A stretch of 64,000 nucleotides of DNA from a virus. A program made the translations under genes and the position numbers. Below are positions 4,259-40,135 of the stretch, piece by piece. The notes under the pieces are model-generated. The model searched no databases. It saw nothing but the letters and a program-made list of their open reading frames with translations, and was not told the DNA's origin. Each line of letters begins with the position of its first letter. Position 1 is the stretch's first letter. The stretch covers positions 128,001 to 192,000 of IMG/VR virus record IMGVR_UViG_3300045988_171772; one strand, written 5' to 3'.

Positions 4259-4269
4259 ATAAGATCAAA

Positions 4270-4318
4270 AAAGATGGTGTACCTCTGGTTAAGGAGATAC
4301 ACCATCTTTGTTTTGTTT
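4270..4318 (+). terminator. intrinsic terminator (AAAGATGGTGTA / TACACCATCTTT)
   Basis: 12-bp stem followed by GTTTTGTTT. Confidence 0.65.
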
Positions 4319-4573
4319 GGCACATAAGCTTCATATTGCCAATGAGGCTTGTAATATTCCGGATGTCATACTTGGTAGAAAAGCGGATCATTGATGGTTC
4401 CTCCGATGGTTAATGAGATGCATCATCTATGATCGAGTATCTTTTCCTCAATTTTCAATTAGTTGATATTATTGAGCGCCATTTTATACAGGATCAATTG
4501 AGTATACAATATCAATGATATCATTTATCGTTGAAAAACTAGGATGTGTCATGATGATTATCTCTTAACTAAG

Positions 4574-4617
4574 CCTCCATGTATATATCGGGAATACATG
4601 GAGGATTTTTTATTTTT
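4574..4617 (+). terminator. intrinsic terminator (CCTCCATGTAT / ATACATGGAGG) ending an ORF-free unit
   Basis: 11-bp stem followed by ATTTTTTATTTTT. Confidence 0.6.
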
Positions 4618-4631
4618 CAACGAAATTAAGG

Positions 4632-4673
4632 TCCCAAGTAATGACTATAGATTGAGTCATTACTTGGGATTTA
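4632..4673 (+). promoter_or_regulatory. 15-bp hairpin about 55 nt upstream of the terminase start
   Basis: TCCCAAGTAATGACT pairs with AGTCATTACTTGGGA. Confidence 0.35.
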
Positions 4674-4728
4674 TATGTCTCTAATTCTCATCTATTTCAA
4701 CCAATGAATTAAAAGGAGGGATTTATAT

Positions 4729-5749
4729 TTGTCTACGATAGTAAATATGATTGATGAAGATATAGACTACAGAAAAGTCTACAGAGAGATTGACAATCTC
4801 GGTGATGATGAGGGACAAAATAAAGCCCCAGACATAGACTTTTCATCCCCTGGGTGGACAAACCCAGACAGTGATAAGGTCGAGCAGTTAATTAAGACTG
4901 ATATTAAGACTCTTACTAAGGTAGCTGAATTAAAGAAGAGCTACGATTTCAAGACCAAGAATAAATCCTTCTTGGAATTGTATCGTGATCTTCACTCATT
5001 AGGTATCAAGAATAATAAATTCTTCTTGGTCATCTATGACAGATCTCTGATTGGAGTAGATCCTTTCTCTGAGGCCCTACCTTTATCTACCAAACTGAGA
5101 ATTATCGTAGAATGTATGCGAAATCCTTGGTATTGGTTACGAGAGATTTGTAGAGTTCCTCAGGATGGTTCTGCCATTGAACCAGGAGGAGGTTCTGAAT
5201 TCATGATAGATAGAACCTCAGCTGCTGCTTGGTATTGCTTTATTAACCATATCGACCATTATCTATGTAAACCTCGTCAGACTGGTAAGACCCATTGTGC
5301 CTTATCAGAGATTGACTATGGGTATACCTTTGGATGTAAGTCTTCTACCATTCTCTTTGCTAATAAAGATGCTGAGAATAATAAGATGAATCTCTATCGA
5401 CTGAAATGTCATAGAGATATGCTTCCCTCTTATATGCATATGAAGACGACCATAGACATGGCAGGAAATCTCATTAAGGAGAAGAATAGTGTTACGACAA
5501 TTCGCAATCCTGTGAATAATAATAACATTAAACTTCTTCCGAGAGCCAATAGCAAAGATTCTGCTATGACCTGTGGACGTGGCGCTACATCGTCTTTGAT
5601 GTATTTTGACGAATGGGACTTTATACCCTACCAAGTCGAAATAATGAATAGCGCTGCCTTTGCGTATTCAAGAGCGAGCGAAAATGCTGCTAAGTCAGGA
5701 TCACTATACAGCCGTATATATTCCTCAACTCCTTTAAAGACGGATATTT
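4729..5749 (+). CDS. terL: terminase large subunit, exon 1 (ATPase domain)
   Basis: Walker A CKPRQTGKT, Walker B LMYFDEWDF and coupling motif SSTP match the T4 gp17 pattern. TTG start 8 nt after AAGGAGGG. The frame hits a stop at 5776 soon after SSTP. Confidence 0.85.
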
Positions 5750-6163
5750 ACTACGAACTCCCACTAATGAAATTATAGATGGAGAAGAATCTGATAGTAG
5801 TGAATATTCGAAAAGGGCCATATAATAGTGATATTATATGGGATCTTCGTGAACTGCTGGGATATCTCTTATTAGAGACGATCAGCAGCCAAGCTTCTTT
5901 CTATATAGAGAGGAGAAGGTTCAACGACTATCGAAAGCACAGGCATAGGAGTAATCCATATGTCGTAGAGCAAGTAGAGTACAGCCAAGCTATTGGGTAG
6001 GTATATAGGTGATAATAGTCTATAGTAAATCCTTTAAATGGAAGTGCGAAGTATCTCTATAGGACGAATATCGCCATATAGAGATAAAGATATAGTCTGA
6101 TTCCCATAGTAATATGGGCGGGTTTCTTATGTAAACCGGTGAGAGTGTAGCGGACTCTCATGG
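5750..6163 (+). ncRNA. candidate ORF-less group I intron interrupting terL (boundaries approximate)
   Basis: A 13-bp helix joins 5742-5754 to 5797-5809, with a U5749-G5802 wobble at the proposed 5' splice site. G6163 as terminal G restores the frame (t+ac = Tyr). AACGACTATC (5923-5932) and GATATAGTCTG (6090-6100) resemble remembered core segments of the T4 td intron. The 3' end ...ACACAATG.. resembles td ...ACATAATG. Confidence 0.6.
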
Positions 6164-7629
6164 ACACAATGGGTGACTTAGATTCTAGAGATGGAGCTGC
6201 TGCTACTGAGTGGCTTTCTCATACTCTCAAGTGGGAAGAAAAATTTTATGATGTCCCTATCGAGAAACTTAGAGCTATGGTTAATGACAACCAATCCAAG
6301 AGGAATGGTGTCATGTGGATCGAGCATTCTTGGAAGCAATTAAAGAAGACACAGGCTTGGTTTGAGAATCAGTGCCGTCTCGTAAACTGGTCTTTGGAAG
6401 TAATCGCGAGGGAGATTGAGCTTAAGAGATTGCATGGCTCTTCTCTGTCTCCCTTCAAGAGAGAAGACATCATGTATATCCAAGCGAATAAAAGAACTCC
6501 GATTGGCGAGATTGATCTTAGTAAAAATATGTGTCCCTTCAAATTCTATAAGAAGATAAAGAAAAGCATTCCTTACTTTATCTGCATTGACCCATCGGAA
6601 GGTCTTGCTCTGGATAACAATGCAATCGAGATTGAATCTCCTTATACCCTTGAAGTGGTATGTGAGATGAAGAATCCCTATATTTCCCAACCAGATCTAT
6701 CTGATATGCTTGTGAAGTTTATGGATCTCTTCTGTCCCAATGCTCTTCTCATTATAGAGAATAACAAGGGTAGAGAATTGATCAACTGTCTCAGAAAGAC
6801 CAAGTATGCAAACCGTATCTGGTATGATACTGGTAAGATGCTGGATGTATCTGAGAAATTGAATAAGTATGGTATGCAGGCTAGAGATTCTCTGGAAAGA
6901 AGAGCATATGGTCTGTCTACCACAAATGCCAGTAGAGCTGTCATGATGGGTATCCTTGAAAGAATGATGGATGAAGAGAAGAGAAAGTTCGTATCAGAGT
7001 ATGTCGTAGATGACATTAGTGCTCTGATTCGTACTCCTTCTGGTAAAATCCAAGCAGCTCAAGGTCAACATGATGACAATATCATGGCCTATCTTTTTGG
7101 TCCCTATATCAAATTCAATTCCAATAATCTGGAAGAATTTGGAATTGATATACATGATATAGACCCAGATGAGGAATCTCTGATGGGGAATATCAGACAA
7201 GTACCAGAAGAGAATAAACCTCTTACTGAAGAAGATCAAATCTTGAAATTGAGAGAAATGTATCCAGATCTTCCTACTGATATCCAAGCTCTCTTGAAAG
7301 ACAATCTCTTCGGTATGAAGGGCGTAAGATTGAAATCCGATCAGGAAGAGAGAAAGAGCTCTGTGCAGCAGATGAAACTGCAACAGACGGCTTCTCAATT
7401 CATCAAGGATGAGACTGTCGATGACTATAAGAGATTGATTGCCTCTAGTACCAGACAGAGATCTCCTTCTGAAGTAGATTATAATTATGACTATGATGGA
7501 GGAGTGCCTTCTGATGATGTCATGATGGATGGAGCTCAGACAGATCGATTCTATGATCATATGTTTGACTCTATCGGTGATTATGAGGCTCAGAATCCGA
7601 ATACCTTTGATCTCAATGACTATATTTAA
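6164..7629 (+). CDS. terL: terminase large subunit, exon 2 (nuclease domain)
   Basis: ICIDPSEG and HDDNIMAY motifs are typical of the RNase H-like TerL nuclease. There is no convincing SD before the track ATG at 6160. Confidence 0.8.
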
Positions 7630-10381: not shown

Positions 10382-10522
10382 ACTTCATATCTCCTATGCG
10401 TATGCTAAAGTGTAAATCCGCTTAGTCTCACGTTCGGATACGGATAATCATTTACATATGGATTCCTATGTCGTTACCAAACTTTCTAATAATGCTAAAG
10501 AATAATAGCCGAGGTGATAAAA

Positions 10523-11275
10523 ATGGCTACTCTCACAATGACGGACATCTATAAGTCCGCATTTCAGAATATCTGCTCAACACTTCGGGATTTGTATGTG
10601 AGTGCGGAAGAAGGAACTTCGGATAATCTTCTGATGAAGGTTCGGATTTCCGGCGATCCCACTTATGGATCGAATCTCATTTCCTACTATTATATTCCGA
10701 TCCAGGTTCGTAAGCTCTGGAGTCAGCATTACTCCCAGGTCGTTCTCGATCAGGTGGAGACTGCGAATCGTATTACGATTACGACAGATGCTTCTGTGGA
10801 CATGGATCTGGAAGGTGCTGCATGGGTGCAGAATATCATCTCTTCTTTCATTACCAATCGGATTCAGATGACGAAGTCCGAGATTCTGAATAAGAGATAT
10901 TCTCATTCCTGCTACATCAATTCCGATGGGTGCATCTCGATCTCTATGGTGAGCAATAACACTTATCATACGAGCTACACTCTGGCAGTTCCCTCTGGAA
11001 ATCCTCTGGAGATTTTCAAAGGGTGGAATCTGGTCTCTGATCGTTTCATTACTCTGGTGCCTGTCTCCAATGTGGATACTGGTGCTCCGGATGATCCTGA
11101 CGATACAGATGATCCGCTGAATGATGGTACCATGATTCATTGCGTGACGAATGATGATGGTACCAATAGTTGGATCTGCGAATCTCCTGATATCTCAGAA
11201 GATGGCGAAGATACAACTACTGTCTCCTGCGATTACGATGAAGCAACTGATACACATACGTGGTCTTGCGAGTAA
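10523..11275 (+). CDS. hypothetical protein (250 aa) with acidic, Cys-containing C-terminus
   Basis: ATG at 10523 follows GAGGTGA; the track GTG at 10514 lies inside the SD. Confidence 0.7.
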   Translation: MATLTMTDIYKSAFQNICSTLRDLYVSAEEGTSDNLLMKVRISGDPTYGSNLISYYYIPIQVRKLWSQHYSQVVLDQVETANRITITTDASVDMDLEGAAWVQNIISSFITNRIQMTKSEILNKRYSHSCYINSDGCISISMVSNNTYHTSYTLAVPSGNPLEIFKGWNLVSDRFITLVPVSNVDTGAPDDPDDTDDPLNDGTMIHCVTNDDGTNSWICESPDISEDGEDTTTVSCDYDEATDTHTWSCE

Positions 11276-11299
11276 TCCCTAAGTTTAAGCACATCATAG

Positions 11300-11352
11300 C
11301 ATCGCTTCTTATAGAGATGATATAGAGTCTTTATAAGAAGCGATGTTTTGTC
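11300..11352 (+). terminator. intrinsic terminator (CATCGCTTCTTATA / TATAAGAAGCGATG)
   Basis: 14-bp stem followed by TTTTGTCTC. Confidence 0.65.
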
Positions 11353-11952
11353 TCTGTGGTAAAACCTACATGGGGTTTCTCGTTAGATCAAACGAGCCTT
11401 GGTTACGGTGGATTATACCCCGACGGGATGAATCTTTGGGACTGGGATATCGGTATAGTTTGTGGCACTGCTTCCATCCAGGGTCTAACCTCCCCTTGGA
11501 TATATTGGCCAAGAAGAATGTCGCCCTGGTATTTATCGCCGGAGATTTATCTTGTCAAAAACCGTATGATGCTGTCCATATAGGAAGAGCAATAAGATTC
11601 AGGGTCGCTATTTAATCTGAATCTGTCCATATGGGCTAGATTGACTCTATAGAGACATACGCGATAAATATCTCTATAGATGCGGAATTGTAATCTGTGT
11701 GGAGTGAGTAATTCCCTCACTTAAGCAAGAAAGTCTGTAGGAGTCTATCAACCCTATAGATGCACACAGGAGAGACGGATATAAGTGGCTTGATAACTCA
11801 CTTGAAGTCATCATCCAGGAGGGATGGGCTGTGGATACGGATTCCTGTATCATTTGATACCGTTTGTCGTATGTGTAAGATGATGAAAGCATGTTATTAC
11901 TGGCATGAGGTTTGTGATATACCTGAATATCGCTCCGTCTTTTTATTGATTG
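11353..11952 (+). ncRNA. candidate large structured RNA of about 600 nt, class unknown (ROOL/GOLLD-size; not verified)
   Basis: GC-enriched and lying between two terminators. It holds only mutually overlapping SD-less ORFs. Helices seen: 11379-84/11391-96, 11595-602/11617-24, 11646-55/11671-80, 11808-15/11879-86 and 11834-40/11845-51. Confidence 0.4.
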
Positions 11953-11999
11953 AAAGAGATATACCGAAATTATACAAATCGGTATATCTCTTTTATTTT
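11953..11999 (+). terminator. intrinsic terminator (AAAGAGATATACCGA / TCGGTATATCTCTTT)
   Basis: 15-bp stem followed by TATTTTC. Confidence 0.65.
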
Positions 12000-12052
12000 C
12001 TGGGTATTGGAACCCCAAGAACCCTATCTTAAGAAATGAGGTGACTCACATA

Positions 12053-14074
12053 ATGAAAATAGAGACATTTAATGTCCCGCATGTGGGAGCTTCACAATCA
12101 TTCGGAACCTCTACTCTTCTGAATAATCTGAAGAATATTGGTTCCGTGATTCTCAATACTCCAGTAGCAGCGAGTCCGTATACCGCTGCTTTTAATGTTT
12201 CCTATAATAATGGGTTTATGGATTTGAATACGGTCAAATATCTGATGCAGACTATCCAAAAGTTTGCTGATGGGAATGATCGTACCACTTCCGAAGGATA
12301 TTCCGCTATTATGGGATCTTATTTGGCTGGATATTTGGAAGCTCATTACGATCGTAGCTATACTTCCAATGATGATGTCACTCTTGGTATATTGTCACCC
12401 TTCTTGGGTGTCTATGCTGAGATTGCTCATCAGAAGAAAGATAGAAAAATGCTCAATACCAAAGAAGTATGTGAATACTTCTGCGATTTGTGTGCAACCA
12501 TCGGTTACGTTCCCAGTGACTATGAAGCTTTTGCATTGACCTGGGAAGAAATCCAGAGTGCTGAGATTATGCCGAGAATTCTTGATCTCATCAGAGAGAA
12601 GGCTTATCATACTCAGCATATCCCTACGGATTCTAATCAAGATCCTATGTCTAGAGATTTTCTCGATAGTATCATTTCTTCTTTGGAGAAGGACCTTCTC
12701 TCACACGATAATGATGCTGAATACGTAGCATCTCAGATTCCGTATGTAACAGAAGCTATTATCTATATGACTGATGCATGTCTCTTTCTTTATAAGTCTA
12801 CTCTGGATAGATTGGCAGAGGAGACATATAGGGAAATCAATGAAATTCTCAATGAGAAGACTTATGCTCCTATTGCCAAGTATATTCCAATTGAAGTAGC
12901 GAAAGCTACTCAGGGATTCCTTGTTGAAACCATCAGGTCTTTCTCCAACATTGGAAATTATCCTCAGAATGAGGTAGGATTCAAGAAGTGCATTCTTGAG
13001 AATATCACAGATGAGAATTTCAAGGAATTCATGAAGGAACTCGTTGAGTATTTCAAGAGGGATTTCTATCCGGATTATCTCAGACATCATAAGAGTGATT
13101 CTGGATCTATGCCTTCCTCTACAGGAAGTGACAATAACTGTGCCTATGTCTTCAATGGAGTCTTCAGAACCATTGCAGATCTTCTGGTACAGAATTGGGA
13201 GAGATCTAGACCCTATATCGAGTCCGATTATCTGAATCGATTCGTTGAGAGATTCTGGTCTTACTTTACTACTTACTGGGTAAAGAATTTCAACTCCATC
13301 GACTTCGGTGAAGTGGATACTCTGACTGTGGATAGTAGTGAAGAATACTTGAAGTATCTCATCAGCTTCGCAGACAAAGAACTCGATGAACTCAAGAATG
13401 CTTACGAAGAAGAGGATAATCATCCTAAGGCAGTATGTTCTCCTATGAATGTTAATCCTTGGGGAATTGCAATTGAGGGTAAGAATTCTATAAAGTATCA
13501 AGAGAAACAAGGATCTCGAATTGGCTCCAATATCTCTAAGGCATTTCAGAATGCTATGGAAGGAGCTGCTCATATCATTTCTCAGTTTAAGAAGATCTCT
13601 TCTGCTGTCTATAAATGGATTACTTCTGATACTAAGAATCAGGATAAAATCGTCTTGGATGGTAGAAAGTTTACCTTCCCCGGATTGATCAAGAGAATCC
13701 TCTTGAGCTATGGTCTTTTCCATGTCAATATCGTGGCTGGTGTCTGTGCATGGATTTTCCTCTGGGCCAAACAGAAGAAAGCCAATAAGGCATCGAGAAG
13801 AAAGATGATCATGATGCTTCAGGAAGAGATTCAGATGACAGAGGAGAAGATCCAGGATGCATCTGCGGATGGAGATCGTAAGGCTAAGTATGCTCTTATG
13901 AGATCCAAGAATCAGTTGCAGAATGCTCTGAATAAACTGAAGTATGGATATGGCGTCGATCTCAAAGATGAAGAGCAACCTGCTGTCCGTAAGGTTACAG
14001 ATCGTGCCTTGAGTGGTGGTAAGATTGCTCCGGATGATAGTCTGAGAACTGCCAGAAGTGGTGGAAGGAGATGA
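12053..14074 (+). CDS. hypothetical protein (673 aa) with C-terminal TM segment and basic coiled-coil tail
   Basis: ATG at 12053 lies 9 nt after GAGGTGA; hydrophobic stretch ILLSYGLFHVNIVAGVCAWIFLW. Confidence 0.75.
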   Translation: MKIETFNVPHVGASQSFGTSTLLNNLKNIGSVILNTPVAASPYTAAFNVSYNNGFMDLNTVKYLMQTIQKFADGNDRTTSEGYSAIMGSYLAGYLEAHYDRSYTSNDDVTLGILSPFLGVYAEIAHQKKDRKMLNTKEVCEYFCDLCATIGYVPSDYEAFALTWEEIQSAEIMPRILDLIREKAYHTQHIPTDSNQDPMSRDFLDSIISSLEKDLLSHDNDAEYVASQIPYVTEAIIYMTDACLFLYKSTLDRLAEETYREINEILNEKTYAPIAKYIPIEVAKATQGFLVETIRSFSNIGNYPQNEVGFKKCILENITDENFKEFMKELVEYFKRDFYPDYLRHHKSDSGSMPSSTGSDNNCAYVFNGVFRTIADLLVQNWERSRPYIESDYLNRFVERFWSYFTTYWVKNFNSIDFGEVDTLTVDSSEEYLKYLISFADKELDELKNAYEEEDNHPKAVCSPMNVNPWGIAIEGKNSIKYQEKQGSRIGSNISKAFQNAMEGAAHIISQFKKISSAVYKWITSDTKNQDKIVLDGRKFTFPGLIKRILLSYGLFHVNIVAGVCAWIFLWAKQKKANKASRRKMIMMLQEEIQMTEEKIQDASADGDRKAKYALMRSKNQLQNALNKLKYGYGVDLKDEEQPAVRKVTDRALSGGKIAPDDSLRTARSGGRR

Positions 14075-14753: not shown

Positions 14754-14765
14754 GATAAAATCTAT

Positions 14766-14812
14766 ATTGCTAGTATACTTCTATTCATAAGGAGTATACT
14801 AGCAATTCTTTT
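14766..14812 (+). terminator. intrinsic terminator (ATTGCTAGTATACT / AGTATACTAGCAAT)
   Basis: 14-bp stem followed by TCTTTTA. Confidence 0.6.
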
Positions 14813-14831
14813 ATATAGGAGATGAAAGAGA

Positions 14832-14942
14832 ATGTTTCAATTCATCAAGAGTGTATTGTCTCGATATTATTCTTGCTATCGTCTGAAAGATGAAGAAGTG
14901 GAGAAAGTAGAGAGATACTGGAGAGTCTTAGGTCTTATCTAA
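14832..14942 (+). CDS. possible 36-aa micro-protein (MFQFIKSVLSRYYSCYRLKDEEVEKVERYWRVLGLI)
   Basis: AGGAGA about 10 nt upstream of ATG; below the track length cutoff. Confidence 0.3.
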   Translation: MFQFIKSVLSRYYSCYRLKDEEVEKVERYWRVLGLI

Positions 14943-14953
14943 GAGAAGAAAAT

Positions 14954-15013
14954 AAGAGCTAGAGAATCATCTGGAGCGATAAAGTGAATATCATCCAGGA
15001 TTCTCTAGCTCTT
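14954..15013 (+). promoter_or_regulatory. long interrupted hairpin (about 20 bp) 190 nt upstream of the capsid gene
   Basis: AAGAGCTAGAGAATC pairs with GATTCTCTAGCTCTT, extended by CTGGA/TCCAG; no T-run. Confidence 0.3.
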
Positions 15014-15204
15014 AGTAAGCTCTCAAAAATGACCATGTATAACAGCCTCTTAAATAAATTTTACATAAATGCCAGAATTCTTTGCGATATAGCGAACCCC
15101 ACGCTCTGTGGAAATAAACAATACCGTAAAGCGGTGAATCCCCTTATCAAGGATTCATCCATTTGTGTAAAACTTAAACTTCAATAAATTGGAGGTTAAA
15201 TACC

Positions 15205-18364: not shown

Positions 18365-18520
18365 ATGAAGGTGGACCTCGAAGATGGAGAATACGAATAT
18401 CTTCCCATGCAGGAATTCGGATGGTCTATTGAGTCTGATCCGGAGATGAGAGAAGGGCCGGTTATGCGTCCGTTTGTAAACATCAAAACAGCAGATTCTG
18501 GTCTCAGAGTTCTTCTGTAA
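18365..18520 (+). CDS. possible 51-aa protein (MKVDLEDGEYEYLPMQEFGW...)
   Basis: ORF below the track cutoff with a weak SD; a terminator follows directly. Confidence 0.35.
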   Translation: MKVDLEDGEYEYLPMQEFGWSIESDPEMREGPVMRPFVNIKTADSGLRVLL

Positions 18521-18525
18521 TACCT

Positions 18526-18567
18526 AAGAAAGGGAATGATTTATACGGATCATTCCCTTTCTTTTTA
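18526..18567 (+). terminator. intrinsic terminator (AAGAAAGGGAATGAT / ATCATTCCCTTTCTT)
   Basis: 15-bp stem followed by a T-run. Confidence 0.65.
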
Positions 18568-18629
18568 TAAACAAATCCAATATATTCATTTATGAATGGT
18601 CCCGGGTCTAACCCTGAAACAACGTGTAG

Positions 18630-18703
18630 TCTTTAAAATAAAAACCTTTAAATGGGTGTGACATATGTCGGCTATATACCGGTGTCACACCCATTTAAAG
18701 GTT
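18630..18703 (-). terminator. strong 21-bp hairpin terminator for minus-strand transcripts
   Basis: AACCTTTAAATGGGTGTGACA pairs with TGTCACACCCATTTAAAGGTT; TTTTATTTT on the minus strand. Confidence 0.6.
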
Positions 18704-19022
18704 CTATTCAAATAAACGCCCAAAGCACACACTGAAGGACTCATGTCTACAAGATAAGGTTGTCTCAACCTCGTGAGAGTGATCTGAGGATGAAAGATCT
18801 AGATTCATCATCGTTCCAATTGTTATGGGAAATCGGTCAATCACAGGAGGTACATATACTGGATGTTATTCCGAAAAGTATGAGGCACAGGCCTCTGAGA
18901 GATCCGTAGATTTTCATCCCGATACAATTTTGCTCTCCTATTTGTATGAGTTGATTCCAGAGGGCTATAGGATCGTTTAAACCTTAGTACCTAAGGATCG
19001 TATGATATTCTTATTTATTATG

Positions 19023-29489: not shown

Positions 29490-29699
29490 GTCAAATAGAT
29501 TGGATAGAATTCTAGATAATGAAATTCACCAGAATAATTCAAAGATCTTTCTAGCTGTTTCCATAAATATATTACATTCCTTTCATGTCCGTAGAAAATT
29601 ACTATATGGTCAAAACGATATTAAAATAATGGAAAGGCTTGTCATATCACTTTTAAAAAGAGAAAATATGACATAAAAATAAAATTGCTATTCTCTCTT

Positions 29700-29862
29700 A
29701 CTGGGATTCTTTAGACAGCATTGCGTACACATCTGCGAGCAGTTTTGCACCTGAAGTCAATCGGATGACATCCAACCGCCTTTCTTTTGTACACACACTT
29801 CTTTCATACCTACAGAACTCCTTGTATTTACCCTGCCTACGGTTACCTGAAAGAATCCCAGT
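29700..29862. ncRNA. candidate structured RNA of about 160 nt closed by a 13-bp helix
   Basis: ACTGGGATTCTTT (29700-12) pairs with AAAGAATCCCAGT (29850-62). Interior is GC-enriched and lies directly beside the hairpin at 29871-29917. Confidence 0.3.
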
Positions 29863-29870
29863 TTGTTTAA

Positions 29871-29917
29871 AATACCCCGTTATCATCCATTTCTCATACG
29901 GATGATAACGGGGTATT
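29871..29917. terminator. 18-bp terminator downstream of the RNAP gene (AATACCCCGTTATCATCC / GGATGATAACGGGGTATT)
   Basis: Perfect stem, T-rich on both strands. Confidence 0.7.
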
Positions 29918-29926
29918 TGTGTCCTT

Positions 29927-33393: not shown

Positions 33394-33559
33394 AAAAGTG
33401 TTATAACGCCTCCATTTCACCTTCCAAGATAGGGGCCTCTACAGCTGACTCCAATACACCTCCTTATATCACTATAATCCTATCTTGTCTATCTAAATCA
33501 TATATGGTTTTATTATTTTATCTGAAGTAAGTCTCTCTTATAGTATTACCTAGATGAAT

Positions 33560-33927
33560 ATATTTACAAGTGGAGCGTAAGCGAAACGGCTCAGATGAAT
33601 TCATACACTATATCCAATCTACCTGGAGGCAATACCGAGTTGTCTAGAAAACTTGTCAGACATGGACGAAAGCGGAGCGGCGATTTATGTGCCTGGAACG
33701 CAGTGCAAGGTCATAAATCGGTAGTACCATGTCTGGGGGTGTGGGGTGATGTACCCCCACGCGCCTAAGCGAACGAAACGAAGTGTAGTGAGTGTGGCAA
33801 GACTTTCCTATAAAAATTTAAATCGATATTAGGTGGAAGCTATTCCTAGCGGACACCTAATATCGCACTCATAAACTAAAGTTGTGATCTTCTTCTATAT
33901 AATTCTTATTATAGAAGAATAATTTTG
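33560..33927 (+). ncRNA. candidate structured RNA domain 1 (GC-rich, nested helices, G/C pseudoknot-like hairpin)
   Basis: Helices 33657-65/33727-35 (9 bp), 33681-89/33712-20 (9 bp) and GTGGGG/CCCCAC 33741-46/33755-60. Repeated TAAGCGAA(A)CG words. Ends at hairpin 33890-33919 followed by TAATTTT. Confidence 0.35.
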
Positions 33928-34147
33928 GCGGAAGGTTTTGAAGATTCATTGAAACGCTGGCTTTTACGTTTCCGACACTACGTGTCTCCAACTAGCCAGC
34001 TGGGGTATTTCTTTCTAAAGAGAAAGAAATACAAGGTAAAAGATTAAAGATAGGAAAACGGAAAAAGTAAACGAAACCAGTGTATCAAGATGTTTACGAT
34101 ACCAGTTATAGTATATGCTCCTAATACTAGAGTATTGACCTTCCGCC
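33927..34147 (+). ncRNA. candidate structured RNA domain 2 (multi-helix junction of about 220 nt closed by a 10-bp helix)
   Basis: GGCGGAAGGT (33927-36) pairs with ACCTTCCGCC (34138-47). Inner helices: 33956-61/33995-34000, 33974-78/33982-86 and a 12-bp hairpin at 34005-16/34021-32. Confidence 0.35.
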
Positions 34148-34337
34148 CCTATTCAATCGTTGCGCGGTCCGTAAAAATTTATTACACCTCTTTCTCCAAT
34201 GAAATACGAGGATTTTGAGTATAATAAGATTTTGGACCCTATTTCAAAAATGATTTCCCAAAATAAAATCTGCAAGGCCTTTGCAAAAAATGTTGAGATG
34301 ATGTCCTCCAACTAAAAGATGAAATTAAAAAGATACC

Positions 34338-34385
34338 AAAATCTCATTATATCTCTTATGAGACATGCGAAATGAGATTTTTTGA
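34338..34385. terminator. terminator hairpin (AAAATCTCATT / AATGAGATTTT)
   Basis: 11-bp stem followed by a T-run. Confidence 0.5.
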
Positions 34386-34574
34386 GTGAGCAAAGATTTT
34401 TTATGTCGAGTTTTAGCATACCTTCTCTGAGAGCCTTCTATATCTGCTCTGAGAGAAGTCGATTTGCTCTAAAACCGTTTGAGACTTTTGAAGGTATTTC
34501 ATCTTCATATGACTCGGTATATAGGCTTATCCTAGAACTCACTAATAAAATTCATCCTGGAGGTAATGAATACA

Positions 34575-35414
34575 ATGGCAAGCGAATTTAATTATTACGC
34601 AGTCATGGAAGATACCTCACCAGCTGGGTATAATACACGCTCGAATATGGGCGTTCAAGAGAATGTCGTGCATGGAGAAACGAGGTCTCTTCGGTTCCGT
34701 GCATGTCTTCAGAGTTTTGGAAGACGAAATCGGAATGGAAGATTGTGGAGAGCTGATATGATGAAGAAAGCTCTGGCAGCTCCTACCATTGTCGAACTTA
34801 TCCAGAAAGGTGACTTTGCTGGAGAGAATGGTCATCCCATTGCTCAGGTTGGTGAAACTTCTATTTCCAGAATTGCTACGATTGATCCTAACAATGTGTG
34901 TCATCGTATCACTGCATTGGAATGGAGTGGAGATCTTGTCTATGGTACCGTAGAGACGATTGATGATATCAATGGTCCTGGTGCTAAGTTGATGAGATCC
35001 ATTATGCAAGGTATGGAACCTGCATTCTCTGTGAGAGCATTGGTACCTCAGAGAAAGAATGCGGATGGTACCTGGGATGTTACTGGAGTAGGTAGAGTGA
35101 TTACCTATGACAGAGTATTCCTTCCTTCTCATATGGAAGCTTATAGAGACCAGAATGTGGATATCAAGATGGTCACTCATGACAATACCTATCAGCAGGT
35201 ATTGGAAAGTTTTGTCTATCCCTATATCTCTTCTCATAGTGATAGAGTGAAGTATGCTACTGACAATACTCAGGTAGCTATGGAGAGTGCACATTATGAT
35301 CCTAAGTCTGGATTGTATAGTGTGAATACTTCTGACAGAAATAGAAGCAGAGTATTCGTTCCTATTGAGAAGAGACTTCAGAAAGAGATGAATGATCTCC
35401 TGAAGAATCTGTAA
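34575..35414 (+). CDS. prohead maturation protease (T4 gp21-like)
   Basis: RRNRNGRLW, FAGENGHP and GPGAKL...AFSVRAL align with remembered gp21 motifs NRNKRLY, LGELNHP and GPGDKL...GVSSRGL. The ATG at 34575 is better spaced from GGAGG than 34566. Confidence 0.85.
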   Translation: MASEFNYYAVMEDTSPAGYNTRSNMGVQENVVHGETRSLRFRACLQSFGRRNRNGRLWRADMMKKALAAPTIVELIQKGDFAGENGHPIAQVGETSISRIATIDPNNVCHRITALEWSGDLVYGTVETIDDINGPGAKLMRSIMQGMEPAFSVRALVPQRKNADGTWDVTGVGRVITYDRVFLPSHMEAYRDQNVDIKMVTHDNTYQQVLESFVYPYISSHSDRVKYATDNTQVAMESAHYDPKSGLYSVNTSDRNRSRVFVPIEKRLQKEMNDLLKNL

Positions 35415-38520: not shown

Positions 38521-38606
38521 TGGTGCTGAAGATGGGAGTTGAACCCATATGGTATCACTACCAAGAGACTTAAGTCTCTTGCGTATGCCATTTTCGTCAC
38601 TTCAGC
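38521..38606 (-). tRNA. type II tRNA-Leu(UAA)-like gene with non-canonical anticodon arm, CCA encoded
   Basis: Acceptor GCTGAAG/CTTCAGC, T-arm ATGGG-TTCAACT-CCCAT, variable arm GGTA-GTGA-TACC. The anticodon region CAAGAGACTTAAGTCTCTTG is a perfect palindrome, which gives a 6-nt or 8-nt loop rather than 7 nt. Confidence 0.75.
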
Positions 38607-39124: not shown

Positions 39125-40135
39125 TTACTCGTCTTTCTTATAAGGATTCCCACAGCTCATTTTCCCTTCGGTGCATCCACCACGAATACAACCAGGACCA
39201 GCATTCGCAAAGAGGGTAGGAGCTACTTCTTTACATTGCGTCAGCATCTGCCAAGCAATGTTACGAATTTCAGCCTGAGCTCTATTGCAGCATCTCAGTG
39301 TAAAGAAATGACGAAGTTCTCTTGCATTCATGGTAATCACCATATTGCAAGTGCAAGCATTCGGCAATACCGCTCTTGCATTCTCATTGGCAATCTTGGA
39401 ATACTTATTGAATGCATTCTTGAATTTATCATTCCCCATAAAGAGAATCTTGTAGATGCTGATCTGATCATTCTCTTCATAGTTCATGAAGTCAGACTCA
39501 GGATTGATGTAAGGATATCCTTCAGAATACCATTTCTTTTCCAGAGTGGCATAATAGGGCATATGCTCCTCATTCTCAGGAATCTTAATATAGTCCTGAT
39601 CACCAAAGAGCTCGTCTGTATTCTCACAGATAAAATAGCTGAGTAGCATAAAGAGAATCCGATCCCGAATGAGGATATAGTCCTTCTTGGATTCTGCAAT
39701 TGCATTGACGAAAGCATCATCGATTGCATACTGCATTTTCTCTCCAGTGTAATTCCCAGCAAGATTTGTATTGGGATGATGGAGAGGATACTCAATATAC
39801 TCAGGAACTCCAACTTGGAAATCGCTGAAGTTGATGTATCTCTGTGACTGCACAGAGAAACTGGCAATACGATGACGAGTGATCTGAGCGAGACAAGATC
39901 TTGTCATATCCGTAATAAGGAATGTGAAAGATGCGTGCTCGATCGGACTCTCATGACCATATCCTTCCAGATGAGAGAGATACCGAGATACCTCTTCATC
40001 CGTAAGAGACTCCCAGATCTTATCCGGTTCCGTATTGGAATAGCAGAGCTTAGCTGCCAAAGCAACCACTTTCTCAGGTTCCGGAGTGTGAGCAATCAGA
40101 GTAGCTTTCGGATACACGACTTTGATCGGTTCCAT
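39125..40135 (-). CDS. thyX: flavin-dependent thymidylate synthase ThyX
   Basis: ThyX signature RHRxxSxxxxSxR present as ITRHRIASFSVQSQRY; also ESPIEHASFTF; GGAGGA SD. Confidence 0.85.
   Translation of the reverse strand: MEPIKVVYPKATLIAHTPEPEKVVALAAKLCYSNTEPDKIWESLTDEEVSRYLSHLEGYGHESPIEHASFTFLITDMTRSCLAQITRHRIASFSVQSQRYINFSDFQVGVPEYIEYPLHHPNTNLAGNYTGEKMQYAIDDAFVNAIAESKKDYILIRDRILFMLLSYFICENTDELFGDQDYIKIPENEEHMPYYATLEKKWYSEGYPYINPESDFMNYEENDQISIYKILFMGNDKFKNAFNKYSKIANENARAVLPNACTCNMVITMNARELRHFFTLRCCNRAQAEIRNIAWQMLTQCKEVAPTLFANAGPGCIRGGCTEGKMSCGNPYKKDE

Follow-up and report, generated by a model that had tools for sequence, protein, structure and literature searches.

The window analyzed here is a stretch of 64,000 nucleotides (nt) from a virus (positions 128,001 to 192,000 of IMG/VR record IMGVR_UViG_3300045988_171772), and the subject of this account is a gene-free segment at 11347-12000 on its + strand. 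The segment is bounded by two hairpins (hairpin 1 upstream and hairpin 2 downstream), sits between the terminase and head genes of a phage, and has as its immediate neighbors a gene for a protein of 250 amino acids (aa) on the 5′ side and a gene for a 673-aa protein on the 3′ side. Comparison with relatives predicts that ~11370-11999 (+), possibly with hairpin 1 included, is the gene for a noncoding RNA of ~600 nt. That the segment specifies a genuine conserved structured RNA is almost certain from the alignments described below; what this RNA does is a matter of more graded judgment.

Hairpins flank the segment on both sides, as a preliminary description made from the letters of the window had proposed. 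Hairpin 2 was found in the minimum free energy (MFE) fold, its loop of more than 8 nt having placed it outside the listing of the terminator scan. Its stem sequence differs in every lineage while the pairing and the U-tract are kept, with double changes at 7 of 14 pairs, and it is predicted to be an intrinsic terminator and the 3′ end of the RNA. Hairpin 1 begins 23 nt past the stop codon of the upstream gene (11273-11275). Its arms are near-identical in the window and in the relatives L010 and L035, and they carry compensatory changes in L006 and in L037/L039. In L037/L039 the U-tract shrinks from 4 to about 0, reading GATGATCTATATACC, and hairpin 1 qualifies as an intrinsic terminator in three lineages only. 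Its possible roles are those of a partial terminator, a processing site, or a 5′ element of the RNA. The preliminary description had taken it simply for the terminator of the upstream gene, a view that does not sit well with a sequence conserved across lineages and stripped of its U-tract in one of them. The proposed transcription unit between two terminators consequently stands at its 3′ end, where the terminator is conserved, and not at its 5′ end, which is unestablished, no promoter having been found.

The segment had also been called GC-enriched. At a GC content of 0.413 (11353-11999) or 0.427 (core), the enrichment holds against most other gaps of the window that are poor in open reading frames (ORFs) (0.23-0.42, most 0.30-0.40) but not against coding DNA (0.418). 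The ORFs of the segment are, as first noted, short and mutually overlapping (90, 75, 48, 57, 114, and 90 aa), and none is conserved. When folding energy was compared with that of shuffled sequences, the segment with its terminator gave z = -7.1 on the + strand and -4.7 on the - strand; the core alone (11370-11945) gave -2.9, and two coding controls of equal length gave -1.3 and -1.7. The energy signal alone is modest, and it is the comparative support that is decisive.

Relatives were gathered from two flanking-protein queries and one DNA pattern, and the syntenic locus was recovered from four deep lineages: the group of the window itself (including L002, L004, L008, and L014-L018), L006/L038, L010/L035, and L011/L037/L039. 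In all four, a gene-free gap of 728-803 nt separates the same two genes, save that one lineage has a call for a 44-aa minus-strand gene. The RNA occurs as a single copy in the window and is present in every relative recovered. Identity across the gap is 55-67% between lineages, about that of the flanking coding DNA. Conservation is mosaic, with 9-12-nt invariant blocks standing amid freely varying stretches; the strings held invariant are UGGAUUAUACCC, CGUAUGAUGCU, AACCUCC, UGUGUGGAG, CACACA, UGAUA, and UGGGC.

The main covariation alignment comprised seven sequences, from which RNAalifold derived a consensus fold of 144 pairs in 21 helices. Compensatory double changes occur at 65 of the 144 pairs; slid controls, in which the partners are shifted by 1-3 columns, yield only 6-22. 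Pairing holds in 90.8% of cells, compared with 35-48% in those controls. The observed values were not reached in any of 500 column shuffles. Refolding on six lineage-balanced sequences gave 85 pairs, 33 of them compensatory, with the core helices unchanged. The same pattern can be followed at short range: the window and L018, which are 88% identical, differ by 13 double and 7 wobble changes with 2 broken pairs. The alignment holds 121 G-U cells versus 24 A-C cells, and T-runs follow the hairpins on the + strand; because of this G-U excess and these T-runs, the RNA is assigned to the + strand. The preliminary description had proposed a large structured RNA and had named covariation as a check on it, and both the proposal and the check are borne out by these counts, by the recurrence of the gap in four lineages, and by the absence of a coding signal.

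That absence was found in several ways. No three-base substitution periodicity was detected in the RNA gap (p = 0.6-0.9), against p = 6e-7 in the neighboring gene. Between close relatives, indels of 1 and 2 nt are numerous, and no frame on either strand runs beyond 159 of ~217 codons, even with TGA, TAG, or TAA read as sense. The conserved protein-coding frame that had been raised at the outset as the opposing explanation was therefore not found under the standard code or under single-stop-recoded codes. A small ORF that follows the AGGAGG string and opens with the ATG at 11824 was considered and rejected: its spacing is 1 nt, the ATG is TTG in L010, and the frame is shifted by a 1-nt deletion in the L006, L010, and L011 lineages.

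The RNA is predicted to fold into four domains built from ~20 helices, with long invariant strands in its junctions and loops (Table 1). Single-lineage MFE folds agree on the closing helix of Domain IV and on most of its inner hairpins. Two of the stems singled out in the preliminary description, at 11595-11624 and 11646-11680, correspond to helices H10 and H11 and are well supported by double changes; H11, for instance, reads UCUAUAGAGA/UCUCUAUAGA in the window and UCUAUCAUUC/GAAUGAUAGA in L004. The third stem, in Domain IV, is present in the MFE fold of the window and has an equivalent GAAUAUC/GAUAUUC helix in L006, but the alignments do not resolve it. Two repeated words had been noted as well, and both were found in two copies each. 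They are by-products of helix arms: CTGTCCATAT (11572 and 11623) falls within the two arms of H9, whose core CCAUAUGG is palindromic, and CTATAGATGC (11674 and 11754) falls within the 3′ arms of H11 and H14. Two longer-range contacts can be drawn on this scaffold. The UUGGYU and GGCCAA strings of the candidate pseudoknot in Domain I are pairable in all sequences, and RNAalifold picked this helix on the balanced set. A contact between ACCUCC and AGGAGG may also be possible; both strings are nearly invariant, and in the L011 lineage, which reads GGUGG, the contact would need a shifted register.

Table 1. Predicted elements of the RNA, its flanking genes, and transcription signals in the window. 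Double changes are given as pairs affected out of the pairs in the helix.
Feature	Position	Strand	Remarks
Upstream 250-aa gene	10523..11275	+	Immediately 5′ of the RNA in every locus (275 aa in some)
Hairpin 1	11299-11346	+	20-bp (base pair) stem, then TTTTG; in terminator scan list
5′ end region	11370-11396	+	Conserved GGGUUUCUC, then hairpin H1
H1	11379-11384/11391-11396	+	Invariant self-complementary GAUC loop; double changes 2/6; 94% of cells paired
Domain I	11398-11573	+	Closed by long-range helices H2/H3 and H5
Candidate pseudoknot	11399-11404 (UUGGYU) with 11507-11512 (GGCCAA)	+	Would form with H3
H2/H3	11401-11409 with 11561-11573	+	H3 G-C to U-A exchange in 3 lineages
Domain I invariant junction strands	11409-11420; 11563-11573	+	UGGAUUAUACCC; CGUAUGAUGCU
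H5	11422-28 with 11550-56	+	Double changes 4/7
H7 hairpin	11477-11500	+	Apical loop with invariant AACCUCC (11487-11493)
H9 + H10	H9 11574-11585/11626-11636; H10 11597-11603/11616-11622	+	Extended hairpin, 11574-11636; double changes 6/11 (H9) and 5/7 (H10); conserved apical loop AUCGC...AAU
H11	11646-11680	+	10-bp hairpin; double changes 8/10
Domain III	11694-11770	+	Three-way junction; A-rich junction strand AAGCAAGAAAGU
H12	11694-11701/11763-11770	+	Invariant UGUGUGGAG and CACACA; 6/8 pairs invariant
H13	11702-11722	+	Hairpin; double changes 3/7
H14	11733-11761	+	Hairpin; double changes 5/10
Domain IV	11771-11942	+	Closed by H15
H15	11771-11779/11934-11942	+	Double changes 3/9
H16	11782-11804	+	Invariant UGAUA loop; double changes 6/7
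Window stem in Domain IV	11808-15/11879-86	+	Window MFE
AGGAGG	11817-11822	+	Inside weak hairpin H17
H18/H19	11833-11874	+	Double changes 4/7 (H18)
Lineage-specific insert	11888-11915	+	Window lineage; Domain IV
H20	11916-11933	+	Hairpin, Domain IV
Hairpin 2 (terminator 2)	11951-11995, unit to 11999	+	14-17-bp stem; U-rich tail TTTTATTTT / UUUUAUUUU
Invariant 28-nt box	12018..12045	+	AGAACCCTNTCTTAAGAAATGAGGTGAC; before 673-aa gene; late motif and Shine-Dalgarno GAGGTGA
Downstream 673-aa gene	12053..14074	+	Immediately 3′ of the RNA, in head-gene neighborhood (656-698 aa across loci)
TCTnTATATTATT sites	17983, 19501, 21603, 53543	+	Early-like motif
TCTnTATATTATT sites	42876, 39118, 36977, 1491	-	Early-like motif
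Late motif examples	2063, 4699, 12020, 26033, 42920, 51372, 52625, 59034	+

The window sequence is carried on a metagenome contig of ~255 kb (ENA ERZ28621018 scaffold_8), with relatives on contigs of 264-276 kb, and two of the matching records are labeled as human gut metagenome. Judged by its proteins, the carrier is an uncultivated jumbo phage distantly related to Bacillus phage AR9/PBS1. For the major head protein, identity is 25-27% with the counterparts in AR9/PBS1, Listeria LPJP1, Staphylococcus jumbo phages, and two Yersinia phages, and the phage also encodes a phage-type RNA polymerase beta subunit. A 1613-aa protein has PHROG endolysin matches together with GH25 and M23 cell-wall hydrolase domains, strong Shine-Dalgarno sequences precede nearly all of the phage genes, and the host is probably Gram-positive. 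The window also contains a gene for a thymidylate-synthase-like protein (39125-40135, - strand; PHROG 85, E = 7.5e-58), which in a relative of the uracil-DNA phages AR9/PBS1 may bear on the pyrimidine or modified base in the phage DNA. The clusters of the two flanking proteins hold 248 and 193 member sequences, and an identical 673-aa protein was found on 11 contigs, which indicates that the clade recurs in public metagenomes. Searches further afield returned no wider homologues, whether by blastn among GenBank phages, by three RNA patterns and two protein queries in IMG/VR, or by two patterns in GTDB genomes; 15 matches to the search pattern alone proved with nhmmer to be due to chance. The BLASTN comparison that the preliminary description had suggested thus came back empty for GenBank phages, but metagenomes supplied relatives in four lineages. 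Over the databases covered, the RNA family appears specific to one clade of AR9-like human-gut jumbo phages.

As to function, we lean toward a discrete, folded RNA that is made alongside the head genes and, by analogy with RNAs such as ROOL and GOLLD, acts in trans as a component of a ribonucleoprotein (RNP) or as an RNA-only assembly. The RNA would be co-transcribed with the 250-aa gene that precedes it, sharing the orientation of the head-module genes; read-through or processing from the transcript of that gene is the most likely route because no promoter motif belonging to the RNA itself was found. It would be released at or after hairpin 1 and would end at terminator 2. Once made, it would be stable and would act in trans as a scaffold, an RNP component, or a ROOL/GOLLD-type RNA-only assembly, rather than as the leader of the downstream gene. 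Its exposed invariant motifs (the ACCUCC loop, AGGAGG, GAUC, and UGGCCA) would be candidate interaction surfaces, with partners in the same molecule, in other copies of it, or in ribosomes and mRNAs. ACCUCC resembles an anti-Shine-Dalgarno sequence and AGGAGG a Shine-Dalgarno sequence, and GAUC and UGGCCA are self-complementary. A bolder version, which we offer tentatively and would not bet on, makes the RNA a new ornate class with a dedicated late or morphogenetic role, exercised either by multimerization through the GAUC and UGGCCA loops or by engagement of ribosomes or mRNAs through AGGAGG and ACCUCC.

Several points weigh against a discrete trans-acting RNA. The argument for action in trans is one of analogy. 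The consensus fold is biased toward the window lineage, where 100% of the pairs are formed, versus 74-84% elsewhere, and with four deep lineages only, tertiary pairings between invariant motifs have no covariation support. Motif searches in the window recognized no promoter upstream of the RNA, only a degenerate early-like string, and hairpin 1, being terminator-like in three of the four lineages, complicates the predicted route of transcription. Finally, the 28-nt box in front of the 673-aa gene shows an invariance beyond the needs of a promoter and a Shine-Dalgarno sequence, which hints at a link between the RNA and the downstream gene.

Such a link is at the heart of one rival explanation, in which the RNA is a giant cis-acting leader, similar to an attenuator or riboswitch. 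In response to a signal, it would govern whether transcription passes terminator 2 and continues into the 673-aa gene and the head genes behind it. In every lineage the 673-aa gene directly follows the RNA on the same strand, and terminator 2 and the start codon are separated by only 40-55 nt, 28 of which are invariant. When RNAalifold is run on the full gap, it pairs the invariant ACCUC loop with the Shine-Dalgarno sequence GAGGU; both strings being invariant, this pairing has no support from covariation, and Shine-Dalgarno sequences of the AGGTGA type are common in the phage. Like riboswitch and T-box leaders, the segment consists of a structured RNA, then a U-tract hairpin, then a same-strand gene. 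The RNA here is two to three times larger than those leaders, and known leaders are in general far smaller than ~600 nt and ~20 helices, which we count against this explanation. Terminator 2 is long, a linker separates it from the core, and inspection of the alignments showed neither a conserved alternative pairing nor a conserved terminator/antiterminator alternative. An antiterminator built on the GATATACC repeat (11919-26 versus 11957-64) was considered and rejected, the repeat being confined to the window lineage and absent from L006, L010, and L011, and inspection of the alignment showed no antiterminator conserved across lineages.

The transcription signals downstream of terminator 2 bear most directly on this question. 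In AR9, early promoters carry the motif AAATATATATTAT-(6N)-G and late promoters AACA-(6N)-TA/G, and hairpin terminators are predicted (PMC5312081). The early-like string TCTnTATATTATT occurs at eight sites in the window, most of them in ORF-poor gaps. The late motif AAC[A/C]-N6-TA precedes many structural genes by 19-35 nt and is under-represented window-wide, with 44 and 32 copies per strand versus ~100 in shuffles. By analogy, the phage appears to use promoters of the AR9 type. The 28-nt box contains such a late motif (AACC-CTATCT-TA, 12020-12031), the sole one in the gap that is conserved in all lineages, and it is placed as at other structural genes, so that read-through from the RNA would not be needed. 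The downstream gene thus appears to have its own promoter, and because this late-promoter motif follows terminator 2, we do not regard the RNA as the leader of the 673-aa gene; a leader role is unlikely. The box as a whole is harder to place. It is invariant in all lineages save for one free position and one C-to-G change in L010/L035, in DNA that is otherwise only ~65-75% identical across lineages. A generic promoter role for all 28 nt was rejected, the box being unique in the window and only its AACC-N6-TA core recurring. Pairing between the box and the RNA was rejected too, since the strongest duplexes form at sites that differ and, in L010 and L037, do not outperform shuffles. Two independent short Logan contigs from two runs (L012 and L013) have as their position 1 exactly the base that opens the box, 36 nt ahead of the start codon; this shared start is probably an assembly-graph break at a sequence common to co-occurring strains and not a transcript end. 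The 673-aa protein itself is 39-43% identical between lineages and has no Pfam, PHROG, or PDB match; a label as portal protein was dropped, the AlphaFold2 (AF2) model being all-helical and of low confidence (predicted local distance difference test score, pLDDT, 58).

A second rival, which we consider just as unlikely as the leader, looks to the upstream gene: the RNA would be the structured 3′ part of the 250-aa transcript, released at hairpin 1, and would form an RNP with the 250-aa protein. This is compatible with a discrete trans-acting RNA and amounts to a variant of it in which the protein partner is the key. The 250-aa protein always co-occurs with the RNA and is much better conserved between lineages (67-72%) than the downstream protein. 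A variant of the late-promoter motif, AACT-N6-TA, stands at 10480 before its gene, no promoter motif was found between the gene and the RNA, and the two may be co-transcribed. The sequence conservation of hairpin 1 and its missing U-tract in L037/L039 would also fit. Set against this are the terminator-like U-tract of hairpin 1 in three lineages and the protein itself, for which no RNA-binding domain and no Pfam, PHROG, or PDB match was detected and whose AF2 model is uninformative and unusable (pLDDT 37.5). Moreover, adjacency is weak evidence in a compact phage genome.

Far less likely is a ribozyme or selfish-RNA relic, for instance a degenerate group I or group II intron or a new element capable of self-cleavage or self-splicing. 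The long invariant junction strands and the complex multidomain fold are features it would explain, and introns are at hand in this group of phages: the phage has at least one group I intron (Rfam RF00028, 5800-6119), which splits the terminase large-subunit gene 5.5 kb upstream, the ORFs on its two sides (4729-5778 and 6160-7629) both match terminase PHROGs, and AR9 relatives are intron-rich, as their joined terminase coding sequences show. That intron was found at 81 bits in the same Rfam run, a positive control that large models are detectable, but neither intron nor ribozyme models matched the RNA at E<=10 in any of the three lineages searched. In addition, the segment is intergenic, lying between a stop codon with its hairpin and a terminator, there are no exons to join, and it occupies the identical site in all lineages, no relatives with an empty site having been seen. 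Two resemblances to catalytic RNAs were examined and set aside. The strings GAAAGUC/GGCUUGA resemble the P4 strands of RNase P, but no model matched, the domain topology is wrong, and the supposed P4 partner changes from CUU to CCU in L004 and L006 without compensation. The likeness of GCCGUAUG to domain V of group II introns fails on a reversed strand order and, again, the lack of a model match.

The searches for known families were made with Rfam 15, the check that the preliminary description had put first, and they returned no catalogued family. At gathering thresholds over the whole window, nothing was reported for the RNA region, and at E<=10 the RNA regions of the window, L006, and L010 gave no family match, which includes ROOL, GOLLD, OLE, HEARO, raiA, RNase P, tmRNA, 6S, and group I and group II introns; these families are excluded to the extent that their models can detect members. 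The matches that fall in the region are terminator-like hairpins and weak, scattered, single-lineage ones far below gathering scores. No prior description of the RNA was found in the literature searched. On this evidence the RNA represents a new family, uncatalogued in Rfam, of a kind already known from phages, the large ornate RNAs.

The preliminary description had likened the segment to the ROOL/GOLLD class. ROOL (rumen-originating, ornate, large) is an RNA of ~581 nt from phages and prophages of gut- and rumen-type Gram-positive hosts, with several multistem junctions and pseudoknots, and has no associated protein (PMC5737381, PMC12286853). The RNA studied here has a comparable length and complexity (~600 nt, 21 helices), a phage origin, and a predicted multistem architecture, and these general traits are what speaks for its being a highly divergent ROOL or GOLLD member. 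As membership, the likeness does not hold up, and we judge it very improbable indeed: the models were unmatched in three lineages, and ROOL and GOLLD are often found beside tRNA genes or tRNA islands, whereas the nearest tRNAs here (56-130 and 38521-38606) are 11 kb and 26 kb away and the syntenic loci shown contain none. ROOL also spans several phyla, in contrast to the single phage clade of this RNA, which has many more invariant nucleotides than have been described for ROOL. GOLLD is likewise a large, ornate, phage-borne RNA, and its expression increases toward the end of lytic growth, a timing that would suit an RNA placed, like the present one, among late head genes. However, GOLLD is longer (more than 800 nt in many members), and its 3′ half is conserved and its 5′ half variable, unlike the invariant blocks found here across all four domains.

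Two other known RNAs invite comparison. OLE shares the length of ~600 nt, Gram-positive hosts (Bacillota), and long, highly conserved single-stranded stretches. It is described as a chromosomal gene of extremophilic or anaerobic bacteria, and its partners are Oap proteins and bS21 (PMC12054373). The RNA of the window, by contrast, belongs to a lytic jumbo phage, has unrelated neighbors, and is not matched by the OLE model. The phi29 packaging RNA (pRNA) is likewise structured, encoded by a phage, and located among packaging and head genes, and the self-complementary loops found here could similarly mediate oligomerization. The pRNA measures ~120-174 nt and comes from small phi29-like phages. 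It showed no sequence or model similarity to the present RNA in the Rfam search, and there is no evidence of a packaging role here.

Least credible of all is the notion that no RNA is involved and that the segment is a decayed protein gene, an alternative-code gene, or a DNA element such as an origin or packaging site; the 90-114-aa ORFs of the window copy and the location between terminase and head genes would suit it, but the lack of codon periodicity, the frameshifting indels, the absence of a frame under single-stop recoding, and a strand-specific G-U excess on the + strand with covariation point to a transcript and not to duplex DNA.

Other parts of the window also depart from plain coding DNA. 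The more distant of the two tRNA genes (38521-38606, - strand) is called by ARAGORN as 'tRNA-???' with a two-base anticodon (ta) and scores 38.6 bits with the Rfam tRNA model; it could be an intron-containing, suppressor, or degenerate tRNA gene. Just upstream of the head maturation protease gene (34566-35414), 1.1 kb (33421-34565) is devoid of ORFs of at least 80 aa (the largest has 69 aa), has a GC content of 0.375, and gives no Rfam match at E<=1; small genes or a further RNA could be present there. Several more gaps poor in ORFs, 440-650 nt long and with low GC contents of 0.33-0.38, lie at 963-1611, 4259-4728, 14754-15204, 18487-19022, and 29490-29926.

Noncoding RNAs of more than ~500 nt with intricate conserved folds are very rare in bacteria and phages. 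Besides the ribosomal RNAs they include group II introns, GOLLD, ROOL, and OLE, and the known examples have turned out to be biochemically unusual, forming RNA-only nanocages or membrane RNPs, for instance. The RNA described here adds a well-supported example to this list. It constitutes a sequence family of its own, comes from uncultivated jumbo phages found repeatedly in human-gut metagenomes, and is embedded among head genes rather than in tRNA islands. With ~600 nt, four domains, and defined invariant loops, it offers a compact object for structural work. It also opens a way into the biology of AR9-like gut phages, whose transcription relies on RNA polymerases of their own. If the tentative late or morphogenetic role is correct, this would be a function unlike that of any catalogued RNA family, and engagement of ribosomes or mRNAs would bias translation toward the phage head genes. 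Should either ribosome interaction or multimer assembly prove true, the small set of large functional RNAs would be extended.

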